Notes: generated by a model not told the origin, from the sequence alone. Counted from the first letter of the stretch, positions 1 through 44,747 are shown. The stretch is DNA of 64,000 nt from Patescibacteria group bacterium (GCA_041649675.1 JBAZMQ010000004.1:16338-80337); one strand, 5' to 3'. Numbers and translations: made by a program.

Positions 1-25
1 CAATGGAAAAATAAAAATTCAGATA

Positions 26-6000: not shown

Positions 6001-7915
6001 CGATAATTGTGAGTCGGCCCCGGCCAACTGCGGCTGGTGTTATAGCGACAGTGACTGTCAGCCGAAAAATGGCGTAGCTGGCAAATGTGATTATACCCTT
6101 GGCCTTTGCCAAAAAGCCGACGACAGTTACAATACTCAAAAGAATTGCTCAGTTGAATATGTTTGTCCGCTCGAAGAAGGTGGCTCTTGTGCGGTTGAAA
6201 AATGTTTGATTGATGGTGCTACTTGTCCAAGCGATGGTAAATGTCTTGACGGTGCTAAATGTGACCCATTGCCTAAGTGTAGTAACGCTGGCGGAAGTGA
6301 TTATTGTTATGCCCAACCGGCAGACAATCAGTGCGGTAACAATGAAAAATGTATCTTGCCGGCTAATTCAGATGAAGTTTTATCCGCTATGGGCAGAGAA
6401 GATCCAACCGGGCAATCATGTGAAATTGGATTTTTCGGTTGTGACATTGATTTATTTGACCTTTTCTTTTCTACTGGCGCATCGGTGATGGAAATGTTTG
6501 TCGGTGCAGTCACGCTGCCAATTGCTATCTTAACTGCTGTTTTGAACTTTGCTATTCAAAAAATTACCAGTTGCCGGCCCCAGGGCTGCAGCGGTCAAGG
6601 TGCAAATTGTGGCGGTGCCGGCAATTGTATTACCTATTTGCATTACTTTCTCTATAAAACAACAATCATGTCTAATGATGAATGGAACTGGTTAGACGAT
6701 GTTCTCAGTGTAATACCTGATTCAACATTAGAGAATATGTCCGGTAGCGTTGAAGGATCCTCCGATGGGTCTAACTCAAACGTTATTTCATCTTTGCTTT
6801 CATCGTTAAATATATTTTCCGGCTCCTCCGGCGCCCAAATTGAGGATTTGCTAGAAGGTCTAACCGAACAAATTGGCATCGGTGGTGTCTTGGGTTTATT
6901 TACCCTTTTTAAGCTTAATTTGAATGATACCTATTGTTCCGGTTCGGACAATGCCTGCCAAACTGGCCCGGATGAGGGCCGGAGTTGTTGCCCGTTTTAT
7001 GCGCCAACCTGTGGTGAAAGTACTAGTATTATTGGTCGATGTTCTGATGGTCCAAACAAGGATTTATCTTGTAAACCGGCTCAAGAAGGTGGTGACCGCG
7101 GTGATGAGTGTCCGACTGGTTCTGTTTGTAAAGTGCGGTCTAATAATGAAACCTATCGGTCGGTTGATGCTTACCATTGGGCTGAACCGAGTTCAATCTG
7201 TCTTAATCCGGCAACTCCCGGTACTGACAATAAACGCTTGAATATCTTTAAGTGTGTTGGTGGCGCCAGCAATGGTGAAATTTGTGCTGGACCGGAAAAT
7301 TGTCCAGACGGCTCTTGTATTCAACAAAATGATTCTTACTGTGCAGTGGCACCAGAAGTTTCTTCAATTAAGATTAATAACCAAAATTTGGGTGATGTTA
7401 AAATCTATGGTGGCGATTACGTTAAAATGGTATTTACTACTGATATTGATTCACAGCAATTACCATTAAACGGTTACATCGTTGATTGGGGTGATGGTAA
7501 AAAAGATGCTGTTTCCGGCCAAGCTTTGCGTAGCCATCCGGACAAAACTAATCCGTTTGACGTTAGCCATTTGTATTCTTTCTGGGATTTACAGCAAGCC
7601 GCTCGGGACGGGGTTTTAAAGTGCGTGGGCCATCCGATTACGGCTGGCGGAACTGATTGTTGCAATGAGCAAGAATGTCACGTCGTGCCCAAGATTCAAA
7701 TCCGGGATAATTGGAATTGGTGTAATGGTAACTTAAGATGTGGCGGTGTTTTAGAAGGCACTCCTTGCAATGATGATAATACTTGCGGCAGTAGCCAATG
7801 TTTGCCGGTTGATAATCAATGGGGGTATAAAGGTAATACTTGTGATACTAATAGTAACGCCTGGCAGTATTATAATGGCGTAATTACTGTTTATCCTTAT
7901 TACAGTAAATTTTAA
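26..7915 (+). CDS. Giant cysteine-rich secreted/surface protein (2629 aa in window; probably 5'-truncated by the window edge). It has two CBM4_9-like carbohydrate-binding modules, a repeated C.(A/E)QAAGC motif, a Cys-rich C-terminal region and C-terminal hydrophobic segments.
   Basis: Single uninterrupted 7.9-kb ORF with no in-frame stop back to nt 2. CBM4_9-like motif 'NYYVSFWAKAP...ETIYLDGVQMEAIG' and second copy 'GKTYLISFWAKSD...QFYVDNIRIQE'. 'CPAQAAGC', 'CSAQAAGC' and 'CREQAAGC'. Hydrophobic stretch 'MFVGAVTLPIAILTAVLNFAI' near aa 2150. Confidence 0.7.
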   Translation: MASGDLISGTAWFDAFSVTNSCVTNPITLNLIGTIDQDESKLHLDRNAQSCPAQAAGCSEFIRTKNNLGSNIVPNASFETWSSDIAQRGWQGDSISQLSNDANNTTNAIVGNSSLVISPLGSVQTDSLVAVAPATNYYVSFWAKAPNATDGVSVSNFVKLKWKQGTANKEADLTFYQDPDVNLNTNWRRFVSDATTTSAAGTSFALAFDNSTSETIYLDGVQMEAIGYQGDYSAYKDYGLVNLTYLKKPPASFGCSGDYQNDPGLCNNYALYCRADEVGCESYTPLDKSGPAVPGVAALDDYCPAECVGYNAYKQSTTFFESQESIEYFIPKTAAQCSASEEGCDEFTNLDKVSQGGEAKEYYQYLRLCKKPTEPGAICQNYYTWQGSGETGYQLKVYNLSAAAEGPQEVIPYNGPADTNWPDYWCDDKTMGQNNRPVCCDGQEDIASNPFCKQLYSADGKIYYRLYPNTITCSDSCLAYRKSRLGESEAAAMDNCSGTHGTWDPASTACVYQAIPQEGIACSAQAAGCRQYRGNAGGNVYTAYFNDLETGTSSGWRYGSIDTEALVVGGHSLKSHLIASDNRTIVETTSGHLNNGPCTDNIIKYQACDAANPNDYNCYDSSSGKCIAKDSQTTDTCKVEPLAEDCSLISSQMTEGKTYLISFWAKSDSATIISNAQVQMATTTGTTVKTTVIGTTNIKPEWNYYSFGPFVYTGGDYPAQLTAQLIITTPNGISTQFYVDNIRIQEINSYSYVIKGSWTTPASCDTNPFVSPAVAAPQFMLGCKQYTDFYKRVHNLKSFNHLCREQAAGCEALIDTYNYSSPFGQSFNVADPIAQVRIPSDQIIYMVNRPTYQCDAQYKGCQSLGQPAINNEDEISSYQTVYRVNNPDNYSSILCTSEQVGCDEFQTGNGFAYFKNPGSKTCEYKPIPNQNTYGWFKTNSTASTPDCPLVSPPLGVPHPGQTFAGTCSDEYSTCTQFIDPTTEYGKSIVSNGDLQRDIDDNKLPDDWNICQSAANPNAFCANYQSVSLRHDKLYTLTVIGTDAANDSDRLWYNTGQPFIEISNCPAITSFDHSMVRVCTDAGGSLVLNAGNLPTVCTANSDCPGGQICNGNVLVLPWAKDSRSADNTPNLPNSRQYSGRFFVPERDEICRLVVHTNLSFRIDQTGASNYINKYVKEIRLVPTDVSYVLSDSVDKLSCNAIVNHENGCVLFNDRSSVNYKIGEDDTSYLNFDANVSGPTINNGIAVNQCAGVCNSNVVLKVTPDRICNSWLYCSSYATFPGSGSQGERNDCTSIGLCDSLDDNGNCSDFIAPKKEGARQDYYRSLEEIRDLSGYVKAGLDFTQQLANAKIQTDLPKIIQGDYPYSEMVQKGGIVFSPGTNFENELSNSLKPFGWNLRYPLLTEPPAQSFSTAVWLLTYSKLIDSPIAAQKEGLDSSAPEGSKFLKLSGPYVVNSEEIDVFGSSEYIMSAFMNTKNLLKGSAIVAVEQFNDEGASLGINHVLNLGRSSDWVFRENSFRTNSATTRIKIILSNWGPTSRSGHNPWTGDTADVIHDVVGSSYFDDIKIKPNLQVGNNAYVPPSCRVYPAADSLSCDYVTSDNLRLRGWLGYCIETDPANPQQCLNWWPIELINGGFVDEQPFITQTPLYYCLKAKENFYGLQACLFRTDSTRCASVGAGATGAPSPRIFNWAVPTAWQLERWQIVKLRMITSTAGCQTEACGGAFTQVNFLPDPKGKDSTLFINGSKGWQAHLKFGTNNRLESIDFNIGGSNCICPDADITIEARKEWCQILVQTVTPFGQSRPWWSRISNNSGSTYTVPGLNYLYNFDIAPYGAVVPSLPVENPAAWNSSSYAGVGPLWVASPDRINFNTPFQARAGIPYSCDQTSAKYGSFNCAYPPQSTGIANKINNKSDQLVTAEVKGMDNLKRLFVRNYGSWQYQGDGVCKDVVTNEIVTQDGREISCACPESSCNAETNNFKICGYVDEDALDRGFPGVCDNCESAPANCGWCYSDSDCQPKNGVAGKCDYTLGLCQKADDSYNTQKNCSVEYVCPLEEGGSCAVEKCLIDGATCPSDGKCLDGAKCDPLPKCSNAGGSDYCYAQPADNQCGNNEKCILPANSDEVLSAMGREDPTGQSCEIGFFGCDIDLFDLFFSTGASVMEMFVGAVTLPIAILTAVLNFAIQKITSCRPQGCSGQGANCGGAGNCITYLHYFLYKTTIMSNDEWNWLDDVLSVIPDSTLENMSGSVEGSSDGSNSNVISSLLSSLNIFSGSSGAQIEDLLEGLTEQIGIGGVLGLFTLFKLNLNDTYCSGSDNACQTGPDEGRSCCPFYAPTCGESTSIIGRCSDGPNKDLSCKPAQEGGDRGDECPTGSVCKVRSNNETYRSVDAYHWAEPSSICLNPATPGTDNKRLNIFKCVGGASNGEICAGPENCPDGSCIQQNDSYCAVAPEVSSIKINNQNLGDVKIYGGDYVKMVFTTDIDSQQLPLNGYIVDWGDGKKDAVSGQALRSHPDKTNPFDVSHLYSFWDLQQAARDGVLKCVGHPITAGGTDCCNEQECHVVPKIQIRDNWNWCNGNLRCGGVLEGTPCNDDNTCGSSQCLPVDNQWGYKGNTCDTNSNAWQYYNGVITVYPYYSKF

Positions 7916-7923
7916 AAATTGTA

Positions 7924-10900
7924 ATGAAAACGATTCCGCGACAATTTAAATTCAAAAAAACCGTGGTTTTGGTATTCGCAGCAGTTTTACTGTCTTCTGT
8001 TGCTTTTAGTGTTTTGCCGGGCTTAGCTTTGAATTTTCAAACCGCCGACCCACTTGAAAAGACCTTGGCAGTTTTACAGGTAACCCCGGTCAGCGCCGCT
8101 GGTGAGCAAACCGAGTCCAAGGATAACGATACCGATAGTTTTTTTGTCACCGCTGTTGGCTGGGTGGTTGAAAAGGCAGTTACTTTGGAAGGTTTTGTAA
8201 TCACTACTGAAACTAAAATCTTGATTTTTTTCTTAAAATATAATGGTTTTGTTAAAGCCAAGGCCGTGGTAATCGGTTGGACTTTAGTAAGGGATGTTTC
8301 TAATTTATTTTTTGTTTTGGTTTTATTGGTTATTGCCCTGGCCACAATTTTAAGGATTGAAGCTTACAATTTCAAGCGGTTATTGCCAAAAATTTTGCTG
8401 ATGGCGGTTTTAATTAATTTCAGCCGTTTAATTTGTGGCTTTATCATTGATTTTGCCCAGGTGATAATGATGAGTTTTGTTGCGGCCTTTGTTAAAATTG
8501 GAACCGGTGGTAATTTGTACGCTGTTTTGCATATCAATGACATTCTATATAGTACTTATGATGTCCAGACTAAGGCTAATACTGAGCAGGGAATTAGTCC
8601 TACGGCCATAGTGGTCAGCGGAATTTTGGCAGTTTTCTTGTTACTGGTTGCTTGTATTGTAATTTTTACCATGATGACTGTGATTATCATGAGAATGATT
8701 ATGCTTTGGATGCTGGTGGTGCTTTCACCGTTACCTTATATTCTTTCAGCCATTCCTAAAGCTGAGCGGTATGCTCAGCAATGGTGGCAGGAATTTAGCA
8801 AATATGTCATTGTTGGTCCAATTTTGGCGTTTTTCCTTTGGCTGACTTTTGCGGTTGCTTCCACTGACCGAGAGGGTTCAATTGGCGGTGAACAAATTGG
8901 CTTGGGTGCAACCGGTTTAGATTCACTAAAAACTTCTTTAGAAACAACTGATAAGGATACAAGCGGCCAAACCAATCAGCCAATAACCGAGGAAGATAAT
9001 AACGGAATTTTTACCGGGATTGGCCAAGTGGAAAATATGCTGTCCTTGATTATCGGGATTGGCATGCTAATGGCCGGTTTAATGATTACTCAGCAGCTGG
9101 GCGTGGCTGGCGGCCAAATGGGCGGAGCGGCAATGTCAAAAATGAAAAGCTTAGGCACCTCATCGCTTAGAAGTGTAGGCGGACTTATTGGCACAGGAGC
9201 CAAGACCTTAGGCAAAGCGCCTTTTCAATATATCGGTAGAAAAGTTAATGAAGCAGTTTATGACGATAGGTTACCAGCCTGGGTCAATCCGGCAGCAATG
9301 TATCGGGGTTGGGTGGCTCGACGCGAGGCTTTGTATACCAAGGCTAAAGAAGGTGCCGCTCTAGGTGGCCAAGAAATGTTTGAAAAAGCATTTACCGGCG
9401 TGGCTCAGCCTCGGCGGTTACAGATGAAAATAGCCGATTCACAAAAATACGCTTCGGAATATTTATTTTTACCAAAAGAAAAATTGGCCAACTATGCCGC
9501 TAATTTATACAAGCAATATCAAACCCATAAGACGCCGGAAATGCGAGCTAAGCTAAGAGGGGTGGCTCAAACTGCCTTTAGAAACGGGTTTGAAGATGAT
9601 GTAATGGATCAAGAGATTTTTCGTAATATGGCGCCAATTGATCCCAGAACCAATATGCCTCTCCACTTAGAAAAGGAACATTATGAGAAAGTGTGGCATA
9701 ACATTTTAGGTGATCATGAGGCCGGTGCATATACGGCCGCAACCGGTGACGAAATAGCTCATGCCACTAAACATTTTGGTGTGGCTGGATTAACTCAAGC
9801 TAACAACGTAACAGGTGATATTGCTTGGAATGATTATGATGAAAAAACTGGCAGATTTGAATGGGAAGAAATCGGGCCGGATGGCCGAAGTTATTTAAAA
9901 AAAGACGCCAATAAAGAAATCAAAAGAGCCAAAGAAGGGGGTAGGGTAGAACTAGCTGAAGCAATTAAAGAAGTTGGGCGAAATAGAAGTTCTTTTCATT
10001 ATCAGGGTATAACTGGAGTCCAAGATCGCAAGGATGCTAAGGGTGAAAAAATGAGAATTGCGGCGCCCTTTAGTGAATTAACAATGGATATGTTAAATTT
10101 ACAATTTAAAGGTCAGAGAGAAATTTTTCTTGGCGAACATTTTAATAGTAGAACTGCCATAGCTTTAGCCGGTGGAAAAATTGGTGACAGCACTTGTGAA
10201 TTTGAAGACAATGGCCTTACTCAAGTTTTGGCTGGTGGGGAGTATGCACCTCATCTATTAAGGAATATAGCCCTATTGGATGCTATTGAACCTTGGTTGG
10301 CTGTAGGTATGATTAAAAAAGTTGGCGGCAGCGAGACTGCCAAGCCAGAGAGTATAAAATATCGCACTGGTGATTGGGTTATGCCATTGCTAAGTTTACG
10401 TATAGCTAGGGACAGTGGTTTATTAGAAAAAATTCATAAGGAAACGGATCAAACTAAAAAAGAGCAGATGGAGCAGGATATGTTTAAACAATACGCTACA
10501 TATTCACCTCGGGCAGCTCAAGCCGCTGGTGCTCCTGGGCCGCAACCGTCACCTACTCCTGGCCCAACGCCTGGTGCTCTTGGGCCGCAACCGTCACCTA
10601 CGGCCGGTCCGTCTCCTGTGCCTTATTCAAGAATGGCCCAGGACTTTGATAGAGAAAAATTTGTCCGGACTAATCAAGCAGTTCATAGGTATGACAATGC
10701 CAATGACTTTTATAAATCTGATGAATACAAAAATGATCAGAATAAATATGAATCAGCGGTTGAGTATGCCAGGCACCGCGACGCTTTAAATCAAAAAGAA
10801 TTGGATCGGGTGAGGGGAACCAAAACTGCATCTACCACTAAAGCCGGTGCGCTGCAAGCCGGAGCTGGTATCAATTTCAGCGACCCTGAGTTACAAAAAG

Positions 10901-11781
10901 CTTATGGCGTTAATTCAGCCATGGATGCGGCATATTTTGAAGGAGAAAATAAAGATAAGGTTATTGAAATGCTTGCCGCTCAGTACTCTCATGATTTGGA
11001 AGCCCAAGGAATGGCGGTTGAAAAGATAAATGAACAAGTTGAGAAATTCAAGCAAGGTTTAAGAAATGCTAAAACTTTGCGGCTTCACAATAATGCCAGT
11101 TTAACTAGCCGGCTAGACCAGGCTCTTCATGAAAAAGCTCACGCTCAAACTATGGGTTTGGCTGATGAACAGTTAAATCAATTCTGGCAGTCACTCAGCA
11201 CAGACCAGCAGCAGCAGATTGAAACTGATATTAAATCAAAATATGGTAATAATATTGCTAGTAAACAAATGAAGCAGGAAGCAATCGCGGAAATGGCCGG
11301 GGTTGGCAAAGGAATTTATGCTCCAAGTGATAAGACTAAAGAAGTTCTAACCGGCTTAAACGTCAAAACTAGACCACAAGCCCAAGAAGATATTTCAAAG
11401 TTAGCACCAGTAGCTCAAAAAGATGTAGAAAAGGAAGGTGAAGAGCTCAAAAAAGCGGTTGCTGGATTTGACGACACCGCCATAGTTCAAGCTTTAGCTG
11501 GGATTGAAGGTATATTGGCTAACGTTGCTTCAACTTTGGATAAAATGCCAAAATCACCGGTTGAAAGCGGGGTCAAAGCTGATTTAAATAGATTGCTTGG
11601 TCAAGTTAGGGATCATCAGTCTGGTGCCGGTGGTGTTTTAGATCCTGGTTCAGTCAGCGGCTTACTGGCCAGTATAAATACTAATTTGAAATCTATTAAT
11701 GAACAATCAAAAAAAGAAAAACCATCGGGAACAGGTGAAGGAAAAATTCCGCCGATGCCGCCGAAGTTAAATAGAAAATAA
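7924..11781 (+). CDS. VirB6/TrbL-like polytopic membrane protein with a long hydrophilic C-terminal extension (1285 aa)
   Basis: N-terminal signal-like segment, then 5-7 TM helices (aa ~110-330) in an arrangement typical of VirB6/TrbL. A ~950-aa charged, coiled-coil-like tail carries the Pro-rich tandem repeat 'GPQPSPT(P/A)GP'. It lies immediately upstream of the VirB3/VirB4-like genes. Confidence 0.45.
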   Translation: MKTIPRQFKFKKTVVLVFAAVLLSSVAFSVLPGLALNFQTADPLEKTLAVLQVTPVSAAGEQTESKDNDTDSFFVTAVGWVVEKAVTLEGFVITTETKILIFFLKYNGFVKAKAVVIGWTLVRDVSNLFFVLVLLVIALATILRIEAYNFKRLLPKILLMAVLINFSRLICGFIIDFAQVIMMSFVAAFVKIGTGGNLYAVLHINDILYSTYDVQTKANTEQGISPTAIVVSGILAVFLLLVACIVIFTMMTVIIMRMIMLWMLVVLSPLPYILSAIPKAERYAQQWWQEFSKYVIVGPILAFFLWLTFAVASTDREGSIGGEQIGLGATGLDSLKTSLETTDKDTSGQTNQPITEEDNNGIFTGIGQVENMLSLIIGIGMLMAGLMITQQLGVAGGQMGGAAMSKMKSLGTSSLRSVGGLIGTGAKTLGKAPFQYIGRKVNEAVYDDRLPAWVNPAAMYRGWVARREALYTKAKEGAALGGQEMFEKAFTGVAQPRRLQMKIADSQKYASEYLFLPKEKLANYAANLYKQYQTHKTPEMRAKLRGVAQTAFRNGFEDDVMDQEIFRNMAPIDPRTNMPLHLEKEHYEKVWHNILGDHEAGAYTAATGDEIAHATKHFGVAGLTQANNVTGDIAWNDYDEKTGRFEWEEIGPDGRSYLKKDANKEIKRAKEGGRVELAEAIKEVGRNRSSFHYQGITGVQDRKDAKGEKMRIAAPFSELTMDMLNLQFKGQREIFLGEHFNSRTAIALAGGKIGDSTCEFEDNGLTQVLAGGEYAPHLLRNIALLDAIEPWLAVGMIKKVGGSETAKPESIKYRTGDWVMPLLSLRIARDSGLLEKIHKETDQTKKEQMEQDMFKQYATYSPRAAQAAGAPGPQPSPTPGPTPGALGPQPSPTAGPSPVPYSRMAQDFDREKFVRTNQAVHRYDNANDFYKSDEYKNDQNKYESAVEYARHRDALNQKELDRVRGTKTASTTKAGALQAGAGINFSDPELQKAYGVNSAMDAAYFEGENKDKVIEMLAAQYSHDLEAQGMAVEKINEQVEKFKQGLRNAKTLRLHNNASLTSRLDQALHEKAHAQTMGLADEQLNQFWQSLSTDQQQQIETDIKSKYGNNIASKQMKQEAIAEMAGVGKGIYAPSDKTKEVLTGLNVKTRPQAQEDISKLAPVAQKDVEKEGEELKKAVAGFDDTAIVQALAGIEGILANVASTLDKMPKSPVESGVKADLNRLLGQVRDHQSGAGGVLDPGSVSGLLASINTNLKSINEQSKKEKPSGTGEGKIPPMPPKLNRK
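10533..10599 (+). repeat. In-frame tandem direct repeat (period ~45 nt) that encodes the Pro-rich linker inside the VirB6-like gene
   Basis: 'ctgggccgcaaccgtcacctac' occurs twice (10533-10554 and 10578-10599). It translates to 'PGPQPSPTPGPTPGALGPQPSPTAGP'. Confidence 0.7.
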
Positions 11782-11796
11782 ATATTAAAACTAATC

Positions 11797-13053
11797 ATGT
11801 TTGATCCAAGACTAGAAAAAATTCATACCATTAAAGCTGAAGATTTAGCTAATCTTGATGTTTTCACCCAAATTAATTCAGCGGCCAATGAATATATTAA
11901 TGGTTTTTACGTTGGTGAATCCTTGGAGCTCTGGTTGGTTTTAAGCCAGTTATTAAAAGGCAAGATATTATCAGATATGCCTGTAGAATTGGCTGATAAG
12001 TACAAAAGTATTTTATTGAAACTAGCTTGGACCTGTATTTCCGTTTTACCCCAGGGAGAGGCGGAAGAATTGTTTAAATCCCAGCTCCTTTTGGGGTTAA
12101 GTTTAGAGATTGATTTGATTAATGGTGTGAAAGGATTTACTGAATATCCCTATGGCGAAGAAACCGGCCAAGAGAAGAAAAGAAAACTGGTTTTGGCCTC
12201 ATTAAAAGATAATGAAGAGCAGTTTGGCAATCGCAATTTAAAGATTGAAGGCGTGACGGGTGATTTTAAGCCGTTAATTAAAAATTGGTTAAAAGATTAC
12301 GATCAATCTACGGAAACGGAAAAGCGCAAAGGCAGATTGAGTTTTTTGGAATATATTAATACAAGTAAAAATGTTCGGCAGTTGGATAATTCACAAAAAG
12401 ATATTTTAAAACAGATATTGGAAGTTTATGATTTTTTACGTTTTACTGTCACTGCCCCCGAGGTTCCGTTAACCGGCCATCAGTTACCCAGCCAGCAAAT
12501 CGGAATTTCGTCAGCCACGCCATTCTTGCCAACAGAGTCTTTAGCCTTAGAAAAAGTTGAATCTAGCGCCCAACAGGATATTATAAAGGCTTATCAAGGT
12601 GATCCAAAAGCGCAAAGCGCAATTGCTAAAGCTGAAGAAAAATTAGTCAAATTGGTTAAAGAGGATAAGGGTAGGTTGAGGGCAGAATTTTTTGCCGCAG
12701 TTCAAAAAAAGGATGTCAATATGACGATTGCGGCTTTTAGGCTTTTAGCCCAGAAAGACGATATTAGTAATTTTTTGCAAGAGGACGTCAAACTAAATAA
12801 GTTTTTAACCTCAGTTTGGGTCAAGCAGTATGGCGCTGATTTTGTCAAAGAATTTAATCAAAATCCCGGCGAATTGAAGTTTGTTCGGTTATTTTTAAGG
12901 TATGTTTTGCAAGACAGGCTGGGCCTGGCCCAAAATGACGCGGCCAGAGTTGGTTTACAAATTGGTAATATCCTGGTTAATTTAGGAAAAAAAGGTTATA
13001 ATAAAATGGCATATTTTGACATTAAAAAGAAACAGTTTGAATGGTTGGAATAG
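11797..13053 (+). CDS. Hypothetical protein (418 aa)
   Basis: ORF with coding-like composition in operon context; no recognisable motifs. Confidence 0.55.
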   Translation: MFDPRLEKIHTIKAEDLANLDVFTQINSAANEYINGFYVGESLELWLVLSQLLKGKILSDMPVELADKYKSILLKLAWTCISVLPQGEAEELFKSQLLLGLSLEIDLINGVKGFTEYPYGEETGQEKKRKLVLASLKDNEEQFGNRNLKIEGVTGDFKPLIKNWLKDYDQSTETEKRKGRLSFLEYINTSKNVRQLDNSQKDILKQILEVYDFLRFTVTAPEVPLTGHQLPSQQIGISSATPFLPTESLALEKVESSAQQDIIKAYQGDPKAQSAIAKAEEKLVKLVKEDKGRLRAEFFAAVQKKDVNMTIAAFRLLAQKDDISNFLQEDVKLNKFLTSVWVKQYGADFVKEFNQNPGELKFVRLFLRYVLQDRLGLAQNDAARVGLQIGNILVNLGKKGYNKMAYFDIKKKQFEWLE

Positions 13054-13058
13054 TAAGT

Positions 13059-13170
13059 AGCTGTTAGCTTTTAGCTAGTAGCTTATAGAAGGAGTTGAGC
13101 TATATATTTGTAATCCAATTCACTATAGTAATTATTATTAGAAATAACTAACAGCTAAAAGCTAACAGCT
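13059..13170. repeat. 18-bp perfect inverted repeat (AGCTGTTAGCTTTTAGCT / AGCTAAAAGCTAACAGCT) flanking a 76-nt AT-rich spacer in the intergenic region upstream of metK
   Basis: Arms at 13059-13076 and 13153-13170 are exact reverse complements. Confidence 0.8.
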
Positions 13171-13206
13171 GGCAGCTATCTTGGGGACAAGAAAGGAAAT
13201 ATTAAA

Positions 13207-14379
13207 ATGGCAAAGAGTAATAAAAAGTACACTTTTACTTCAGAGTCGGTAACTGAAGGTCATCCCGATAAAGTCTGCGATCAAATTTCGGATGGTATTT
13301 TGGATGCAGCTTTAACTGATGATCCCAAATCTAGGGTGGCAATTGAAACCCTAGTCACTACCGGGTTAGTTGTTGTGGCCGGAGAAATGACTACCAGTAC
13401 TTATATTGATGTGCCAAAAGTGGTCAGGGGAATTATTAAGGATATTGGTTATACCGATCCGACTATTGGTTTTGATTGGGAAAATTGTGCGGTCGTAACT
13501 TCAATTGATGCACAAAGTCCGGACATCTCGCAAGGCGTTTCGGCTGGGCAAGGCCTTTTTAAAGAGCAAGGCGCTGGTGATCAGGGTATGATGTTTGGTT
13601 ATGCTACCAACGAAACTCCTGAATATCTGCCCTTACCGATAGTTTTGGCTCATAAACTCACCCAAACTTTGGCCGCAGTCAGAAAAAGTGGTCAATTAGC
13701 CTGGTTAAGACCGGATGGCAAATCCCAGGTTAGCGTTGATTATGCCGATGGCCAGCCGCAGCGGGTGGCAACAGTAGTTGTTTCCACTCAACATACCGCC
13801 GAGGTTGAACATGATGAAATTGAAAAAGAAATTATTGAAAAAGTGGTTAAACCGGTTTGCGGCCAATGGCTGGATAAGGATACAAAATATTATATCAATC
13901 CAACTGGAAAATTTATTATTGGTGGGCCTCATGGTGATACCGGCGTAACTGGCCGAAAAATTATTGTTGATACTTATGGCGGTCATGGCAGCCATGGTGG
14001 TGGTGCTTTTTCTGGCAAAGATCCGTCAAAAGTTGACCGGTCAGCTGCTTATATGGCTCGTTACATTGCTAAAAATATTGTTGCTTCCGGAGTGGCGTCA
14101 CAATGCGAAGTTCAGTTGGCATATGCTATCGGCGTGGCTGACCCGATTTCAATTTTAGTCAATACTGAAGGTACAGCTAAAGTTGATGAAGGAAAAATTG
14201 AGCAGGTTGTTAGAGAAGTCTTTCCATTAAAGCCAGCCGGAATAATTGAGCATTTAAAGCTTTTGCGGCCAATCTACCGAAAAACCACTTGTTATGGCCA
14301 TTTTGGCAGAAATGACGCTGATTTTACCTGGGAAAAAACCGATAAGGCTGATGAATTAAAGAAAGCTTTAGGTTTATAA
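13207..14379 (+). CDS. metK: S-adenosylmethionine synthetase
   Basis: Full-length match to MetK hallmarks: '[20 protein letters not shown]', '[30 protein letters not shown]' and 'DTYGG'. Confidence 0.95.
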
Positions 14380-14401
14380 TCAATAAATAATAAATTAAGT
14401 A

Positions 14402-15580
14402 ATGGCAGTTAATGATAATAAAAAAACCGATGATTTTTTTAGTGCCCTCGCTCAAGAGCAGCAAATTGAAAATCCATTTGCCACTGAAGAAATACTTTTT
14501 CGCGATGAAAATGGTGTTTTGAAGATTTTGAAGGGCGGGCAGGTTTTGGATTATACCCAAAATGGCGAGCAAAAAGATCAAACTGCTGCCCCGCTTCAGC
14601 CTGAGCCACTACCAGTTTTGCCAAAGCCAGAAGTCGTACCGTCGCCACCACTCAGTCAGCCAGTTTTGCCACCAATTCCTGTTGTGGAACCCATCCCAGC
14701 CCCAGCGCCGGTTACACCCAGTGAGCCATTAGGTCAGCCGCTGAACTTAGACGAAGAAATAGAGATGGTGATTAAAAAATCAGGCATTCATTTTACTGAT
14801 CAGCAGTTAGCTAAACGTTTCACCAGCATCATTACTTCCAGGCTTAAGCACATTCGCGATCAAGTCCAAACCAAAGAAGCACTTTTGAGTTCGCCCACGG
14901 CGGGTGGAATGGGATTTACTTCGGTCCAGGCCGATCGGATAATGCTTGCGATTAATCAAGTTCTGGATCAATTGAGTAATAAGCTAAGACAAGGAGTAAG
15001 CCAGGAACCATTTTCTGATTTACAACAGGAGGTCCAAAAGCTTTTAGCCCAACAGCCACTGGTTTCATCACCGCCAAAAATTGTTTTCTCCGCCCCAGCT
15101 AAGCCAGTTGAACCGGCAAAAGTTACACCAATTAAACCAGTAGCGGTTGAAAAACCGCAGCCAGTAGCCGCTCCCAAGCCACCTGCGTTACCTCAAATGC
15201 CAGCTGCCAATACTTTTACCAAGCCAAAAATTGAAGATGTTAGGTTTGAGCCAAAATTAACCGGGCCAATTGAAGAAATCCATTCCATGACTTTGATTGA
15301 TTTTCGTCGCTTAGGTTCCACGCCTCAGCAGGCAATTGAAAAGATTATTGAAAAAATTGATTTATTGGAAGAGGAATCATTTACTAAAAAAACCCAGGCA
15401 ATAAAGGCCTGGAAAGAAAATGAAGTTTACCGTCTTTATTTAGCCTTGGGCGATCAAAGCATGGAAGAAAGAAAGCCGATTGCTGAAATAATTGAAGAAA
15501 AACAAAAAGCAAATCAGCCCACCTTGACCTCTCAAGAAGTAGAAGCAATAATTGAATTAAATCAAAAATTAAGATATTAA
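14402..15580 (+). CDS. Proline-rich hypothetical protein (392 aa)
   Basis: ORF with long P/V/E-rich low-complexity tracts ('PLQPEPLPVLPKPEVVPSPPLSQPVLPPIPVVEPIPAPAPV'). No catalytic motifs. Confidence 0.55.
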   Translation: MAVNDNKKTDDFFSALAQEQQIENPFATEEILFRDENGVLKILKGGQVLDYTQNGEQKDQTAAPLQPEPLPVLPKPEVVPSPPLSQPVLPPIPVVEPIPAPAPVTPSEPLGQPLNLDEEIEMVIKKSGIHFTDQQLAKRFTSIITSRLKHIRDQVQTKEALLSSPTAGGMGFTSVQADRIMLAINQVLDQLSNKLRQGVSQEPFSDLQQEVQKLLAQQPLVSSPPKIVFSAPAKPVEPAKVTPIKPVAVEKPQPVAAPKPPALPQMPAANTFTKPKIEDVRFEPKLTGPIEEIHSMTLIDFRRLGSTPQQAIEKIIEKIDLLEEESFTKKTQAIKAWKENEVYRLYLALGDQSMEERKPIAEIIEEKQKANQPTLTSQEVEAIIELNQKLRY

Positions 15581-15625
15581 ATTAGCTTTTGGGAAGTAGT
15601 ATCTCTATAAGCTATAAGCTAGCAT

Positions 15626-16084
15626 ATGCAGCAATTTGTTGTTCCCCAATTTATTGACGTTGAAGACAAAGTCATCGGACCGATAACTGTTCGTCAGTTT
15701 ATTATCCTTTTGGTTGGCGGCGGTTTAATCTTTGTTTCCTATAAATTGGCTGATTTCACCTTGTTTTTACTGGAATTTGTCATCATCGGTTTAGTTACCT
15801 TTGTTGTTGCCTTTATTAAAATTAATGGGCGCCCAATTCATTATTTTTTGCTTAATATTATTCAAACTTTAAAAAGACCCAGAAAACAAGTTTGGCAAAA
15901 ATTATTTTCTAATAGCGAGTTAAAAGGTTATGCTAAAACCAAAACCCCGACTTTACCACCACAGATTAGGACTAAAAATAAGGTTAGAGCTTCAAGATTA
16001 GCCGAACTTGCCTTAGTAGTTGATACTGGCGGGATTTATCAGGGTGAAAAAGAGCCACCAACCAGTTTAAATAATTTAATATGA
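15626..16084 (+). CDS. Small two-TM membrane protein, PrgI/VirB3-like
   Basis: 152 aa with two hydrophobic helices. It sits immediately upstream of the VirB4-like genes with an ATGA overlap, the usual VirB3-VirB4 gene order. Confidence 0.4.
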   Translation: MQQFVVPQFIDVEDKVIGPITVRQFIILLVGGGLIFVSYKLADFTLFLLEFVIIGLVTFVVAFIKINGRPIHYFLLNIIQTLKRPRKQVWQKLFSNSELKGYAKTKTPTLPPQIRTKNKVRASRLAELALVVDTGGIYQGEKEPPTSLNNLI

Positions 16085-16761
16085 AATCAAAAAAATTAGC
16101 CGGAAGTAAACCTAGCGCTGCCACCCAAAAATACTTGGATATTGCTGAAATCCGAGAGGATTGTGTTATTTTAAAGGATGGCACCCTGCGCGCGGTATTA
16201 TTAGTTTCCAGCATTAATTTTTCTCTAAAATCCGAAGACGAACAGAACGCCATAATTTCTGCTTACGTTAGTTTTTTAAATTATTTGGAATTTCCCTTAC
16301 AAATTGTCATTCAGTCACGCAAATTAGATATTGATGGCTACCTTAATCGGCTTAAAAAAATTGAAAAAGAGCAGACCAATGAATTACTGCGGATGCAAAC
16401 TGCTGAATACCGGCAATACATTACCGAGCTGGTTGAATTGGGAGATATAATGACTAAGCGTTTTTATATCATTGTACCGTATAATCCTTTGTCGGATAAA
16501 CAAAAATCGTGGGCTTCAAGATTTTTTAGTCTTTTTTCCGCTGCTTCCGAAGTAAAGCTTAGTCAGGAAGCGTTTATTAAAAGGCGGCGGGATTTAATGC
16601 AGCGAGTTGACAATATTGTCAGTGGTTTGGGTAGTATGAGTTTAAAAACAGTTTTATTGGATACCCAAAGTTTAGTTGAGCTTTACTATAATACTTATAA
16701 TCCGGATGTTTATAATAAAGAAAAAATGGTTGAAGTAAATAAACTACGAGTTGAAGAATAA
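16081..16761 (+). CDS. VirB4/TrbE N-terminal domain encoded as a separate ORF (226 aa)
   Basis: 'YLDIAEIREDCVILKDGTLRAVLLVSSINF...SEDEQNAIISAYVSFLN' resembles the conserved N-terminal region of VirB4/CagE/TrbE. Its stop TAA (16759-16761) lies 1 nt before the ATG of the ATPase ORF, in a different frame. Confidence 0.45.
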   Translation: MKSKKLAGSKPSAATQKYLDIAEIREDCVILKDGTLRAVLLVSSINFSLKSEDEQNAIISAYVSFLNYLEFPLQIVIQSRKLDIDGYLNRLKKIEKEQTNELLRMQTAEYRQYITELVELGDIMTKRFYIIVPYNPLSDKQKSWASRFFSLFSAASEVKLSQEAFIKRRRDLMQRVDNIVSGLGSMSLKTVLLDTQSLVELYYNTYNPDVYNKEKMVEVNKLRVEE

Positions 16762-16762
16762 T

Positions 16763-18685
16763 ATGGCAATAAAACCCCAAGAAATAATTAAAGAGGAGAA
16801 ACTGGCGGCTTTGGCAAACCAACAGCAGGCAGATGAACAGCAGCGGCAAAAAGAAAAACAGGATTTAGAAGAGCAAAAAATTCTTTTGGAAGAAGAACGG
16901 GTTTATCGCGAAGGCTTGGTTTCGATTAAAGATTTGATCGCGCCGGCGGCTTTGGAAGTAACTCCGACCTATATTAAAATTGGTGATCAGTTTGCCAGAA
17001 CCTTGTTTGCTTTTAGCTATCCTCGTTATATCGCTGTTGGCTGGTTTGCGCCGATAATTAATTTAAGCGTGCCCTTGGACATTGCCATGTATTTTTATCC
17101 GGTTAAATCCAACATTATTTTAAAGCAATTAAGAAATAAGGTTGGTGCTTTGGAAGCCCAAATTTTATCCGATCGCGAGAAGGGAGCACCTCGTGACCCG
17201 ATTCGGGAAACCGCTTTGCGCGATATTGAAAAATTAAGAGATGATTTGACTCAGGGGATTGAACATTTTTTTCAATTTGGCCTTTACGTTACAATTTATA
17301 GCGAGACTAAAGAGAAATTGGATAATTTAACTTCTGACGTTGAGGCTTTGTTTGGCTCTCGGCTGGTTTTTTCTAAAAAAGTTTTGTATCAAGCCGAACA
17401 GGGTTTTAATTCAACCTTGCCCTTGGGTAATGACGAATTAATGATTGGTTTTAACATGAATTCTTCGCCAGCGGCTTCCTCTTTCCCTTTTATTTCGTCT
17501 GAATTGAGTTCTGATGAGGGCGTTTTGTATGGTATTAATCGCCATAACAATAGTTTGATATTATTTGATCGTTTTTCTTTACAAAATGCTAATACAGTTG
17601 TCTTTGCTACTTCGGGTGCCGGTAAAAGTTATACTATCAAATTGGAAGTTTTGCGTACCATGATGTTTGGTACGGACGTTATTGTTATTGATCCGGAAAG
17701 AGAATATAAACATCTGTGCGATGCCGTTGGCGGGACTTATGTTAATATTTCCTTGAGCTCGGAAGCAAAAATTAATCCTTTTGATTTGCCGCGGGCAGTT
17801 GGTGATCAGCGTTCGGCCGATGTTATCCGGGGTGCGGTTATTACGTTAAAAGGTTTAGTTCGTTTAATGCTTGGCAAGCTGACTCACCAAGAAGATTCAA
17901 TCATTGATCGGGCCTTATTAGAAACTTACGCTAAAAAAGATATTACCGCCAGTTCTGATCTAAGTAAAATTGAAGCGCCAATCATGCAGGATTTTCAGGA
18001 TATTTTGGAAGGGATGGAAGGTGGTTCGGATTTATCTTTACGTTTAAAAAAATATACCCAAGGGACATTTGCCGGTTTGTTTAATCATCCGACCAACGTT
18101 GATATGAAAAATCAGTTGATTGTTTTTTCCGTTCGGGACTTGGAAGATGAGCTGCGGCCAATGGCAATTTATACGATTGTTAACTATATTTGGAATGTTG
18201 TCCGTTCGCAACTTAAGAAAAGAATTTTAATTATTGATGAAGCCTGGTGGCTGATGCAAAACGAAGATTCAGCTAAATTTATTTTTGCCTTGGTCAAACG
18301 CTGCCGAAAATACTATTTAGGGGTGACTAATATTACTCAAGATGTCAATGACTTTTTGCTTTCGCCTTATGGTCAAGCAATTGTCAACAATTCCGCTTTG
18401 CAATTATTAATGCGCCAATCACCGTCGGGAATTGATTTGGTCCAAAAAACCTTTATGCTAACCGAAGGCGAAAAATATTTGCTTTTGGAATGCGGTGTTG
18501 GTGAAGGAATATTTTTTGCCGGCGATAAACATGCGGCCATTAAAGTCGTTGCCTCTTACACTGAAGATCAGCTAATCACCTCTGATCCCAGGCAAATTTT
18601 GCAAATTGAAGAAGCTAAAAAAGAATTTGATTTGGCTTCACAGAACCAGGAGGTTGAAGAAGTTGAGGAACAAATATCCCAGTAG
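16763..18685 (+). CDS. virB4: VirB4/TrbE/CagE-family type IV secretion ATPase (C-terminal ATPase portion)
   Basis: Walker A 'ATSGAGKSYT', Walker B 'ILIIDEAWWL' and overall VirB4-like architecture. The ATG at 16763 is preferred over the TTG at 16751 used by the ORF track. Confidence 0.75.
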   Translation: MAIKPQEIIKEEKLAALANQQQADEQQRQKEKQDLEEQKILLEEERVYREGLVSIKDLIAPAALEVTPTYIKIGDQFARTLFAFSYPRYIAVGWFAPIINLSVPLDIAMYFYPVKSNIILKQLRNKVGALEAQILSDREKGAPRDPIRETALRDIEKLRDDLTQGIEHFFQFGLYVTIYSETKEKLDNLTSDVEALFGSRLVFSKKVLYQAEQGFNSTLPLGNDELMIGFNMNSSPAASSFPFISSELSSDEGVLYGINRHNNSLILFDRFSLQNANTVVFATSGAGKSYTIKLEVLRTMMFGTDVIVIDPEREYKHLCDAVGGTYVNISLSSEAKINPFDLPRAVGDQRSADVIRGAVITLKGLVRLMLGKLTHQEDSIIDRALLETYAKKDITASSDLSKIEAPIMQDFQDILEGMEGGSDLSLRLKKYTQGTFAGLFNHPTNVDMKNQLIVFSVRDLEDELRPMAIYTIVNYIWNVVRSQLKKRILIIDEAWWLMQNEDSAKFIFALVKRCRKYYLGVTNITQDVNDFLLSPYGQAIVNNSALQLLMRQSPSGIDLVQKTFMLTEGEKYLLLECGVGEGIFFAGDKHAAIKVVASYTEDQLITSDPRQILQIEEAKKEFDLASQNQEVEEVEEQISQ

Positions 18686-18708
18686 GTTAAATATTAATTT
18701 GTCCGTAT

Positions 18709-19308
18709 ATGAGTAAGCGAAATAAAATAATTATTGCCATCATCGCTGTTGTTGTAGTAATATTATTGATAATAATTATTGCCTTGTTTCTAAATCAAAG
18801 AAGATCAGCCCGGTTGGTAAACATTAATACTAATCAAGCCGGACAGCTGCCAGCCAATCAACCGGCCTCAACGGCTGGGTTAAATAAATCCCAAGAGTCA
18901 CCAGTCAAGGAAAAAAAATTAGAGGCCAGCTTGAAGGCGATTGCTTCAACCTTTGCTGAACGTTTTGGTAGTTACTCCAATGAAGGCAATTACTCTAACC
19001 TTGAAGCGCTAAAAGATTTAATGACTGACAGGATGAAAGCTTGGGCTCAAAGCTATCAGGCTTCACAACAAAAACCTAGTACCAATGATTCAATCGTTTA
19101 TTATGGTATCACCACTCAAGCTTTGTCGGTTCAAATTTCAAATTTTGACCAGGCAGTTGGTACGGCTGAAGCTATAGTTGTTACTCAACGGCAAGAAACG
19201 AAAAACAATACTACTAATCCTAAAGTTTATTACCAAAATTTAAAATTACAATTATTAAAAACGGCAGCCGGTTGGAAAGTTGATGCCGCCGAATGGCAGC
19301 AGCCATAG
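18709..19308 (+). CDS. N-terminally membrane-anchored protein, possibly VirB8/TcpC-like
   Basis: Single N-terminal TM ('IIIAIIAVVVVILLIIIIALFL') followed by a ~165-aa domain rich in beta-strand-like sequence. Position directly after virB4. Confidence 0.35.
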   Translation: MSKRNKIIIAIIAVVVVILLIIIIALFLNQRRSARLVNINTNQAGQLPANQPASTAGLNKSQESPVKEKKLEASLKAIASTFAERFGSYSNEGNYSNLEALKDLMTDRMKAWAQSYQASQQKPSTNDSIVYYGITTQALSVQISNFDQAVGTAEAIVVTQRQETKNNTTNPKVYYQNLKLQLLKTAAGWKVDAAEWQQP

Positions 19309-19369
19309 TTTGGTGTAAATTATAAACATAGTCAACATAGCGCAATAATTAATAATTTAGATTAGCGCT

Positions 19370-20029
19370 ATGAATACTATTAAAAAATTAATTTTTGATT
19401 TAATTTTTCCGATTCAATGTTTGGGTTGCAAGAAAGAAGGCGAGTGGCTGTGCCAAGAATGTTTTGACCGCATAGAAATAAATCCAGCCCAGTTAAATCC
19501 AGCCCAAAAAAATCAATTATTTTCAGGAATTTGGGTAGTAACGGTCAAAGATCAGACGTTAGTTAATACAATATTGCATAATTTTAAGTACAATCTAGTC
19601 CTTGATTTGGGTGAAATTTTGGGCAGTTTAGCGATAAAATTTTTAACCAGGCTAATTTTACAGGATAAAAATTTGCATTTTGATTATATTGTGGCTGTAC
19701 CGCTATCTAAAAAAAGAAAGTTGTGGCGCGGGTTTAATCAGTCTGAAGTCATTGCGCAAAAAATCAGCCAGCAGTTTGTTTGGCCCAATAATTTTTCTTT
19801 AATTTATCGGCACTATCATAACCGGCCTCAGGTTGGATTAAATGCTTTGCAGCGGCAGGAAAATGTTAAAGGAATATTTCGGGCGGACAATAATGAATCA
19901 TTGGAAAATAAGAAAATTTTAATAATTGATGATGTTTTAACTACCGGGGCAACTTTAAATGAAAGTGCTAAAGCGCTGAAGGCAGCTGGGGTTAAAGAAA
20001 TTTGGGGTTTGGTGATAATTAGAGGTTGA
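19370..20029 (+). CDS. comF: ComF-family protein (phosphoribosyltransferase-like competence protein)
   Basis: N-terminal C..C...C..C zinc-finger-like cluster ('CLGCKKEGEWLCQEC') and PRTase motif 'ILIIDDVLTTGATL'. Confidence 0.75.
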   Translation: MNTIKKLIFDLIFPIQCLGCKKEGEWLCQECFDRIEINPAQLNPAQKNQLFSGIWVVTVKDQTLVNTILHNFKYNLVLDLGEILGSLAIKFLTRLILQDKNLHFDYIVAVPLSKKRKLWRGFNQSEVIAQKISQQFVWPNNFSLIYRHYHNRPQVGLNALQRQENVKGIFRADNNESLENKKILIIDDVLTTGATLNESAKALKAAGVKEIWGLVIIRG

Positions 20030-20075
20030 TACTCTTTACAGAAAAAAGTTTTAGTGTTACAATATCAGGGTTTTA

Positions 20076-20201
<126 letters not shown>

Positions 20202-20240
20202 CAGACCAGGTTATAGCTATAGTTTTAAAACAAAATATAT

Positions 20241-20753
20241 ATGGCTAAAGAAAATTTTGAAAAAAATGATTCCGAAGCGCCAGATTACGGCCAAATATTT
20301 TTCGCCTGGAAATTTCCGGAATTTCATCCTCACCAACGCGGTCGTGGTTGGTATATTACCGGTGGAATTGTTGCAATACTACTTCTGATTTTTTCTATTT
20401 TTACCGCCGATGTCTTGTTTGGGTTAATTATTATTTTATCAACCCTAATTATTCTCCTTTTTCAGCAAAGTAAAAATGAAGTTGAATTTAAAATTACCGA
20501 AGACGGGATATTGGTAAACAGTAAATTTTATAAGTACAAAGCCATTAAAAATTTCTATATTATTTACGAACCGCCGGAAGTAAAAACTTTATATTTTGAG
20601 CCAAATAACCTTTTTATTCCAAGAATTCCGATATATTTAGATAGCCAAAACCCAGTCAAAATTCGCGAGGTTTTAAAACAGTATTTGGATGAAGATTTAG
20701 AGCGGGAAGAAGAACCGATGTCCGATGCGATGTCGCGGACATTTAAGTTATAA
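20241..20753 (+). CDS. Hypothetical membrane protein (170 aa, two TM helices)
   Basis: ORF with two hydrophobic helices followed by a ~90-aa soluble domain. Confidence 0.55.
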   Translation: MAKENFEKNDSEAPDYGQIFFAWKFPEFHPHQRGRGWYITGGIVAILLLIFSIFTADVLFGLIIILSTLIILLFQQSKNEVEFKITEDGILVNSKFYKYKAIKNFYIIYEPPEVKTLYFEPNNLFIPRIPIYLDSQNPVKIREVLKQYLDEDLEREEEPMSDAMSRTFKL

Positions 20754-20766
20754 TGTCCCAGTAGCT

Positions 20767-20793
20767 CCCGCCTACGCCTGCGGCTTCGGCGGG
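20767..20793 (+). other. GC-rich hairpin (CCCGCC...GGCGGG) downstream of the 20241-20753 CDS; no U-tract
   Basis: Inverted repeat seen in the sequence. Confidence 0.3.
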
Positions 20794-20826
20794 CAAGTAG
20801 CTGGATACCCGACTCGCTTGACTCGT

Positions 20827-20900
20827 GTCCCTATAGCTCAGCTGGATAGAGCGCAAGCTTGCGGAGCTTGAGGCCGTAGGTTCGATTCCTACTGGGGACG
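20827..20900 (+). tRNA. tRNA-Arg with unusual anticodon GCG; CCA not encoded
   Basis: Manual cloverleaf: acceptor GTCCCTA/TGGGGAC, D-stem GCTC/GAGC, anticodon stem CAAGC/GCTTG with loop TTGCGGA, T-arm GTAGG-TTCGATT-CCTAC, discriminator G. Confidence 0.7.
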
Positions 20901-20917
20901 CGAGTCAGGTGGGCGGG

Positions 20918-20969
20918 GAGCGCAAGCTTGCGGAGCTTGAGGCCGTAGGTTCGATTCCTACTGGGGACG
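20918..20969 (+). repeat. Tandem direct duplicate of the 3' 52 nt of the tRNA-Arg gene (20849-20900), 17 bp downstream of the intact tRNA
   Basis: Exact 52-nt identity 'gagcgcaagcttgcggagcttgaggccgtaggttcgattcctactggggacg'. Confidence 0.9.
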
Positions 20970-20995
20970 CCATTGTAAAATTATTTTTAGCCAAG

Positions 20996-37503: not shown

Positions 37504-37511
37504 TAATTATT

Positions 37512-38708: not shown

Positions 38709-38725
38709 CATTAATAATAAATATC

Positions 38726-39334: not shown

Positions 39335-39342
39335 ATTAGCAT

Positions 39343-39627: not shown

Positions 39628-39666
39628 TATTGGTGCCTAAAAATCTTTTAACCCAATCAATAATTA

Positions 39667-41400: not shown

Positions 41401-41435
41401 TTATTATTTATAGATTAAATTAAAATTTTAAATTT

Positions 41436-41813: not shown

Positions 41814-41830
41814 ATTTAAATTATAATTTT

Positions 41831-44721: not shown

Positions 44722-44747
44722 TTTTCATATAATCTGGAGCTCCAAAA

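Follow-up and report, generated by a model that had tools for sequence, protein, structure and literature searches.

We analysed a 64,000-nt stretch of DNA from a Patescibacteria group bacterium (GCA_041649675.1 JBAZMQ010000004.1:16338-80337), hereafter the window, with positions counted from its start. The genes at 7924-20029 very probably encode a working type IV secretion system (T4SS) of the Patescibacteria type, chromosomal and vertically inherited, built in the arrangement of class ABY1, derived from monoderm MPF_FATA machinery and serving interaction with a host cell rather than plasmid transfer. A large part of the bacterial diversity not yet cultured belongs to the Patescibacteria, and, to our knowledge, theirs is the first T4SS shown to be essential for its owner's survival. 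The locus is a clean ABY1 example, in which a VirB8-like protein, a family of 392-aa proteins with fusions and a giant cysteine-rich protein provide leads on cargo and transport direction. Systems of this kind have already been published, including the separate TrsD, the missing relaxase and the comF, recG and radA context in ABY1 (Quinonero-Coronel et al. 2025, PMC12102498; Wang et al. 2023, PMC10633639). The additions made here are modest: a VirB8-like gene that is nearly universal in ABY1 loci, a pair of 392-aa and 418-aa proteins, and a recurrent giant neighbour.

Nine protein genes lie on the plus strand between 7924 and 20029, separated by very short spacers, with the end of a giant gene upstream and a tRNA gene downstream:

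2-7915, plus strand: C-terminal 2637 residues of a giant cysteine-rich surface-type protein, whose start lies upstream of the window
7924-11781, plus strand: extended VirB6/TrbL-like polytopic protein, 1285 aa (from hydropathy and homologues)
11797-13053, plus strand: soluble protein of 418 aa, candidate accessory component (no family match)
13207-14379, plus strand: S-adenosylmethionine synthetase MetK (TIGR01034, 593 bits)
14402-15580, plus strand: soluble protein of 392 aa, conserved core member of the cluster
15626-16084, plus strand: PrgI/VirB3-like protein, 152 aa, with two transmembrane segments (PF12666)
16081-16761, plus strand: TrsD-like protein, 226 aa, the VirB4 N-terminal domain as a separate open reading frame (ORF) (NF045975, NF041427)
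16763-18685, plus strand: VirB4-family ATPase of the MPF_FATA/CD1110 type, 640 aa, without the N-domain (NF045971)
18709-19308, plus strand: VirB8-like bitopic protein, 199 aa (from an AlphaFold2 model and Foldseek)
19370-20029, plus strand: ComFC-like protein with a zinc ribbon and a phosphoribosyltransferase domain (TIGR00201, 103.6 bits, below the cut-off; Pribosyltran; DZR_2)
20076-20165, plus strand: tRNA-Ser(GCT), end of the co-directional block of protein genes (ARAGORN and Rfam)

The giant gene is followed after 8 nt by the VirB6-like gene, which is separated by 15 nt from that of the 418-aa protein; 22 nt lie between metK and the 392-aa gene, and 45 nt between the latter and the PrgI gene. 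The PrgI and TrsD genes overlap by 4 nt, the TrsD and VirB4 genes are 1 nt apart, and gaps of 23 and 61 nt flank the 199-aa gene on the VirB4 and ComF sides, respectively. The ORFs named in an earlier sequence-only reading of the same DNA, with their strand, coordinates and tight spacing, were all found as it had them. That reading had also counted twelve co-directional genes and placed ComF in the gene set of the operon; only nine protein genes are present in 7924-20029, neither MetK nor ComF is a T4SS part, and the run is broken by tRNA-Ser and by a tRNA-Arg at 20827-20901 (ARAGORN; Rfam). An ORF at 20098-20388 was rejected as spurious, since it overlies tRNA-Ser. Scanning 7000-21500 for promoters and terminators yielded sites no more numerous than in shuffled sequence, so the limits of the operon could not be set in this way. 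Rfam found the two tRNAs only over the whole window, and no riboswitch preceding metK. GC content is even across the cluster region, and neither an integrase nor a repeat boundary nor a GC shift was found at the cluster.

The 640-aa protein passes the cut-off of the curated conjugal-transfer ATPase model NF045971 (conju_CD1110; 359.8 bits against a cut-off of 325, E 3e-107, model positions 171-730 of 752) and also matches PF19044 P-loop_TraG (106.5 bits); the profile assignment that the sequence-only reading had named as a check on its VirB4 identity thus succeeded. Its Walker A (ATSGAGKS) and Walker B (ILIIDEAW) motifs are intact. The best relative among PDB sequences is the C-domain of Thermoanaerobacter VirB4 (4AG5, E 7e-48), followed by TrwK of R388 (E 2e-10). 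CedB, an ATPase of archaeal DNA import, is matched weakly (E 5e-11). Immediately upstream, the 226-aa ORF encodes the N-terminal domain: the two ORFs cover consecutive parts of the same model, NF045975 (positions 93-238, E 9e-12, and 260-892), as expected from the split VirB4 already noted from the sequence. The shorter ORF also matches the TrsD/TraD model NF041427 (E 2.4e-8) and positions 2-119 of NF045971, and a PF26593 TraC-like match is precomputed for a gene identical to 16081-16761; on its own, TrsD has no match among PDB sequences. Because TrsD-like and VirB4 proteins are encoded separately in 78 out of 78 related loci, the split is ancestral and not the product of a frameshift or sequencing error. 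The PrgI/VirB3 assignment at 15626-16084 was likewise upheld, as the 152-aa protein exceeds the cut-off of PF12666 (37.9 bits against 27, with a weak TcpE match besides), has two transmembrane segments, with its hydrophobic stretches within residues 16-71, and is encoded by a gene overlapping that of TrsD.

For comparison, we used 80 VirB4-bearing loci (L001-L080) from metagenome-assembled genomes of Buchanan-, Falkow-, Magasanik- and Kerfeldbacteria and of 'Parcubacteria'. The nearest VirB4 proteins, 85% identical to that of the window, come from Candidatus Buchananbacteria and another Patescibacterium, and the next 78 are 71-78% identical. Buchanan-, Falkow-, Magasanik- and Kerfeldbacteria we take to be assigned to class ABY1 of GTDB. 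Judged by these relatives, the source organism is a Buchananbacteria-like member of ABY1 rather than one of the Saccharibacteria, whose genomes the sequence-only reading had named among the contexts of this gene set.

Synteny across the 80 loci, a comparison that the same reading had proposed, revealed a conserved core order: (giant)-VirB6-like-(418-aa)-392-aa-PrgI-TrsD-VirB4-VirB8-like-(ComF or RadA). Homologues of VirB4 are present in all 80 loci, of TrsD in 79, of PrgI in 78, of the VirB8-like protein in 75 and of the 392-aa protein in 74, followed by the VirB6-like protein (52), RecG (43), RadA (38), ComF (34) and MetK (6). The median identity to the window protein is 75% for VirB4 (80 loci) versus 53% for RecG and 52% for RadA; conservation above that of RecG and RadA speaks for strong purifying selection and vertical inheritance. 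The nearest VirB4 proteins from outside the Candidate Phyla Radiation (CPR) come from replicons of Bacillota and Actinomycetota and are 29-35% identical. With 71-85% identity to the 80 Patescibacteria proteins versus 29-35% to those of plasmids, the window VirB4 very likely belongs, on sequence comparison, to the monophyletic Patescibacteria VirB4 clade that lies beside MPF_FATA (PMC12102498). The same source names TrsD as the commonest companion of virB4 and reports PrgI/VirB3 and VirB6 homologues.

The identification of the VirB6-like protein is less direct. The 1285-aa protein has, by hydropathy, some 7-8 transmembrane segments in residues 10-394, followed by a hydrophilic and poorly conserved C-terminal part of about 890 aa. 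Its homologues, present upstream of virB4 in 52 of the 80 loci, are conserved only in the region of residues ~70-430. Neither PF04610 nor PF19590 matches the window protein at E <= 1, be it at full length, over its first 500 residues or over residues 60-439, and NCBIfam yields no TrbL/VirB6 match; when the family profile was compared with PDB sequences, only low-complexity coiled-coil noise from the C-terminal part was retrieved. The TrbL family of Pfam (PF04610) nevertheless matches 20 out of 55 homologues of the protein at E < 0.01, and four of these exceed the gathering cut-off: P0177 (37.2 bits, the cut-off being 25.9), which shares 39% identity with the window protein (E 8e-51), as well as P0202, P0205 and P0206. 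The VirB6/TrbL label proposed in the sequence-only reading has, then, no direct profile match in Pfam or NCBIfam; it is supported transitively, by homologues that match TrbL, by the polytopic layout, which is that of an extended VirB6, and by the place of the gene in the cluster.

The 199-aa protein has no Pfam or NCBIfam match, and a profile of 46 sequences finds no VirB8-type chain among PDB sequences. A structure model, built with AlphaFold2 from the 46-sequence alignment (mean predicted confidence, pLDDT, 87.3), has an N-terminal transmembrane helix (residues 3-32), a disordered segment (33-68) and an NTF2-like domain of three helices and a four-stranded sheet. Foldseek searches of the PDB with this model returned PrgL (7AED, E 2.7e-4), TraE (5WIP), VirB8/TrwG of R388 (8RTD) and CagV (6IQT, TM-score 0.69), with further matches to TcpC (3UB1), an IcmL-like protein and the VirB8 proteins of Agrobacterium and Brucella (2CC3, 5JBS), in the range of E 3e-4 to 3e-3. 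The candidate VirB8/TcpC-like protein at 18709 had been put forward for exactly this kind of comparison, which gave PrgL, TcpC and VirB8 folds. Since NTF2-like folds are common, the VirB8 assignment depends in part on the bitopic topology and on where the gene lies: it directly follows that of VirB4 in 75 of the 80 loci. Taken together, the predicted fold, the topology and the position after virB4 support a VirB8-like role for this protein. VirB8 matches have been described as rare and almost confined to ABY1 (PMC12102498).

VirB8-like proteins of nearly all loci were also drawn in by an iterated hidden Markov model (HMM) started from another protein of the window, an N-anchored TolB-like beta-propeller of 424 aa (25043-26317, minus strand) that is encoded near virB4 (within 10 kb) in at least 25 loci. 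Their capture is probably drift of the profile through the shared N-terminal transmembrane helix and low-complexity linker, and it was left out of account.

Two further proteins of the cluster, of 418 and 392 aa, are soluble. The former is poorly conserved and has neither a Pfam or NCBIfam match nor a transmembrane segment. The latter consists of a small beta module, two helical domains and proline-rich linkers, with no known fold match and no transmembrane segment; it belongs to a very large, unannotated family, always encoded just upstream of PrgI, whose profile retrieved nothing significant from PDB sequences. The family of its C-terminal domain numbers 2,457 clusters. GpsB matches at E 0.02-0.05, obtained when PDB sequences were searched with the VirB8-like and 392-aa profiles, were judged to be due to chance. 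The N-domain of the 418-aa protein (residues ~46-223) is fused to a 392-aa homologue in a single ORF of 630-690 aa in three loci (L023:1575-3470, L036:6004-8073 and L039:5290-7287), which ties the two proteins functionally, although in the window their genes are separated by metK. The 392-aa homologues that entered an iterated 418-aa profile were traced to genuine fusion proteins; the same profile retrieved longer ORFs (~740-980 aa) in L020, L035 and L058, which probably share the fused architecture. As neither protein has a transmembrane segment, both are presumably cytoplasmic. The hypothetical proteins at 11797, 14402 and 18709 had been singled out from the sequence as candidate uncharacterised components; the fusions link the first two, the third is VirB8-like, and the 392-aa and 199-aa families occur in 74 and 75 of the 80 loci, respectively.

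Upstream of the VirB6-like gene, the giant ORF extends past the 5' end of the window, as its reading frame has no stop codon ahead of position 26. The part within the window contains 126 cysteines, repeats with a motif of the type C-x4-5-GC-[DE]-x-[FY], one CBM_4_9 domain and a single hydrophobic stretch at residues ~2159-2188, about 450 residues from the C-terminus. Giant proteins of relatives have 3246-3312 aa, and the full-length protein is probably about 3,500 aa by this measure. In 20-22 ABY1 loci the VirB6-like gene is immediately preceded by a large cysteine-rich ORF, and the protein may serve as an adhesin or be a cargo. The association with giant proteins, which the sequence-only reading had given as established in the literature, was not confirmed, the available text of PMC12102498 making no mention of giant or large proteins. 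Between the giant and VirB6-like genes, eight loci (L008, L014, L015, L028, L037, L051, L068 and L070) carry homologues of a 396-aa protein that the window encodes elsewhere (26366-27556, minus strand). This protein has a disordered N-terminal part, two C-terminal transmembrane helices and no family match; its gene is possibly a relocated member of the cluster.

We searched for partners of the system with Pfam (E <= 1e-3) in every window ORF of at least 100 aa. No type IV coupling protein (T4CP), relaxase, VirB11 or VirB1 lytic transglycosylase was detected among these ORFs, which bears out, within the window, the absence of these four proteins noted from the sequence; the 10 kb preceding the giant gene of a 66%-identical relative also yielded none of them. 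The window has two T2SSE-family ATPases, PilB and PilT, which both belong to a type IV pilus cluster, and PilT (41831-42904) was rejected as a VirB11 candidate, with 319.5 bits for TIGR01420 versus 22.8 bits for VirB11. The surroundings are chromosomal in character. In the window, the flanking genes encode MetK, RecG, MPG, RadA (540.7 bits), a ClpC-like ATPase, HtpX and LemA, all of them housekeeping proteins, and in the 66%-identical relative LeuRS, FemAB, Sua5/YrdC and KsgA are encoded upstream of the giant gene. The earlier view that this is not a classical conjugative element therefore holds, as no relaxase or T4CP accompanies the mating-pair genes; it agrees with PMC12102498, in which relaxases are very few and T4CP genes seldom lie close to virB4, and with PMC10633639.

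Among the closest known systems is the Patescibacteria-clade T4SS, of which Southlakia epibionticum has one (SEML1_0006-0019). The clade and the window are alike in being chromosomal, in a VirB4 of MPF_FATA affinity with TrsD encoded beside it, and in having PrgI/VirB3 and VirB6-like proteins and no relaxase or T4CP nearby; a VirB8-like protein and the comF, recG and radA neighbours connect the window to the ABY1 members of this clade (PMC12102498, PMC10633639). By transposon sequencing, the homologous cluster of Southlakia was shown to be required for epibiotic growth and comEC to be dispensable (PMC10633639), as restated in a 2025 review (PMC12857230). VirB2-like pilins and a cell-wall hydrolase are both essential parts of that system (PMC12102498, PMC10633639); unlike Southlakia, the window has no VirB2-like pilin array and no peptidase or lysozyme genes beside virB4. 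Conversely, no counterpart of the 392-aa, 418-aa and giant proteins was found in the available text of either source.

Among the MPF_FATA systems, pGO1/pSK41 (TrsC-TrsD-TrsE), CTn2 of Clostridium difficile (CD1110) and pCF10 (PrgH-PrgI-PrgJ-PrgL) share with the window the order of a PrgI/TrsC-like protein, a TrsD-like protein and VirB4. A separate VirB4 N-domain (in the pGO1 subclass), a VirB8 fold (PrgL, TcpC) and the lack of outer-membrane core proteins are also common to both. They differ in that MPF_FATA systems are borne on plasmids or integrated conjugative elements, have a relaxase, a T4CP, a cell-wall hydrolase and an adhesin, and transfer DNA, whereas the window genes have none of these partners nearby, are set among housekeeping genes and encode a VirB4 only 29-35% identical to those of plasmids.

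A similar organisation is found on the megaplasmid of Pontibacillus sp. ALD_SL1 (NZ_CP062975.1, L097), which encodes a short VirB4 of the CD1110 family, an overlapping TrsD-like protein, a PrgI-like protein of 116 aa and a polytopic protein of 779 aa. These match their window counterparts in the same order (VirB4, E 1.5e-120; TrsD, E 2.5e-27; PrgI, E 2e-5; VirB6-domain profile, E 0.012). In contrast to the window, the megaplasmid cluster includes a Mbov_0395-family pilin-like gene and a peptidoglycan endopeptidase of 1050 aa, and it lacks counterparts to the VirB8-like, 392-aa and 418-aa proteins. The cluster (351801-361354) is situated beside flagellar genes on an 898-kb replicon typed as non-mobilizable, with no annotated relaxase or T4CP within 12 kb. 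Two further systems, ComB of Helicobacter pylori and the archaeal Ced, resemble the window in depending on VirB4, in lacking a relaxase and in being used for purposes other than conjugation; Ced also requires a type IV pilus, and one is encoded in the window. Their composition is different, ComB being a diderm VirB2-B10 set and Ced consisting of CedA and CedB, and the window VirB4 matches CedB far less well than the CD1110 family (E 5e-11 versus E 3e-107).

From solved T4SS structures and from the homologous system, we infer how the parts may assemble and what they may transport. The motor would be a cytoplasmic VirB4 hexamer made of two polypeptides, TrsD contributing the N-domain and the 640-aa protein the ATPase, and the PrgI/VirB3-like protein would tether it to the membrane through its two transmembrane segments. 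It would feed a channel formed by the extended VirB6/TrbL-like polytopic protein, with the bitopic VirB8-like protein as a scaffold across the membrane and the wall zone. The 418-aa and 392-aa proteins could act as cytoplasmic accessory or receptor components, and the cysteine-rich giant could be an adhesin of the apparatus or an item displayed by it. The whole would carry out a contact-dependent exchange with a host cell that is essential to the lifestyle of the organism, as shown genetically for the Saccharibacteria homologue. Plasmid conjugation is most likely not its task, given the lack of a relaxase and of a nearby T4CP, the housekeeping surroundings and an ATPase conserved beyond RecG and RadA.

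Several points weigh against this interpretation. Against the 199-aa model, ARC6/PARC6, the CaMKII hub and Tim44 reach scores similar to those of VirB8 proteins, NTF2-like folds being common, and the VirB6 assignment of the window copy is indirect, passing through its homologues. The cluster and its gaps yielded neither a VirB2-like pilin, searched for with Pfam TrbC/VirB2 and among small ORFs with two transmembrane segments, nor a cell-wall hydrolase; because both are essential in Southlakia, the ABY1 machine may work differently. The absence of partners covers 64 kb of an 89-kb contig, and a T4CP or relaxase may be encoded elsewhere in the genome; PMC12102498 indeed reports many VirD4-like genes far from virB4. 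Finally, essentiality and host dependence have been demonstrated only in a Saccharibacterium, which is not an ABY1 organism.

The recombination and competence genes around the cluster suggest another function, which we regard as improbable: a T4SS-derived channel for DNA uptake or exchange, comparable to ComB or Ced, that would pass single-stranded DNA to ComFC, RadA and RecG, with the pilus aiding contact. In 29 loci the VirB8-like gene is followed, on the same strand, by that of ComFC, with a gap below 100 nt in 27 of these and often an overlap, and in 11 loci RadA comes next. Within 10 kb, RecG is encoded in 43 of the 80 loci and RadA in 38. The co-localisation of comF, recG and radA with ABY1 T4SS loci has been reported, with functional coordination suggested (PMC12102498), and the weak CedB match and a complete type IV pilus cluster 16 kb downstream point the same way. 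However, RecG and RadA vary in their order and are in many cases encoded on the other strand, which fits an inherited neighbourhood better than an operon; ComF, RecG and RadA are housekeeping genes of most bacteria, and we consider ComF a conserved neighbour rather than a T4SS subunit. The CedB match is far weaker than those to conjugative VirB4 proteins, and neither ComEC, ComEA nor DprA was found among the window ORFs. Southlakia, moreover, can dispense with transformation, for which it needs ComEC, but not with its T4SS (PMC10633639). A further, more speculative reading appears to us a long shot: the ABY1 T4SS would have been remodelled for nucleic-acid traffic with the host cell upon contact, without pilins or hydrolase, tied to ComFC and placed beside RadA and RecG, the 418-aa and 392-aa pair taking the place of the coupling protein and the giant protein forming a host-binding tip.

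That the cluster is a decayed or domesticated remnant of a conjugative element from a Gram-positive donor, no longer a working machine, is very unlikely: outside the CPR, the nearest VirB4, TrsD and PrgI proteins are indeed those of Bacillota and Actinomycetota plasmids, the best curated family is a conjugal-transfer ATPase, and relaxase, T4CP and hydrolase are missing from the window scans, but all nine ORFs are intact and tightly packed, as are the Walker motifs, VirB4 is conserved above RecG and RadA over 80 genomes of several candidate phyla, as is the gene order, the cluster bears no integrase, repeat boundary or GC shift, and the homologous system is essential in Southlakia (PMC10633639).

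Beyond the T4SS genes proper, metK is found at this position in only 6 of the 80 loci and is, for this reason, best seen as a recent, lineage-specific insertion that is not part of the system. The type IV pilus cluster (36361-54760) encodes PilM, a PilN-like protein of 398 aa, PilO, PilB, a response regulator, PilT, PilC, several N-methyl pilins and PilD, as well as YfhO-like and PMT/TMEM260-like glycosyltransferases and minor-pilin-like ORFs. The GTG start of RecG (20909-23059) lies 8 nt past tRNA-Arg, and its first residues resemble translated tRNA flank; the true start is probably further downstream.

Further along the window, 690 nt between ligA and gatC (56834-57523) lack a convincing ORF, and Rfam matches nothing there at gathering thresholds. 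GC content rises locally to 0.46 at 60001-62000, versus ~0.37 nearby, over two ORFs without a family match (60528-60857 and 60854-61957), the second of which encodes a polytopic membrane protein. Between the two tRNA genes, a DUF5673 protein with two transmembrane segments and a PH-like domain is encoded at 20241-20753, and its gene adjoins the cluster in 33 of the 80 loci, in either orientation.

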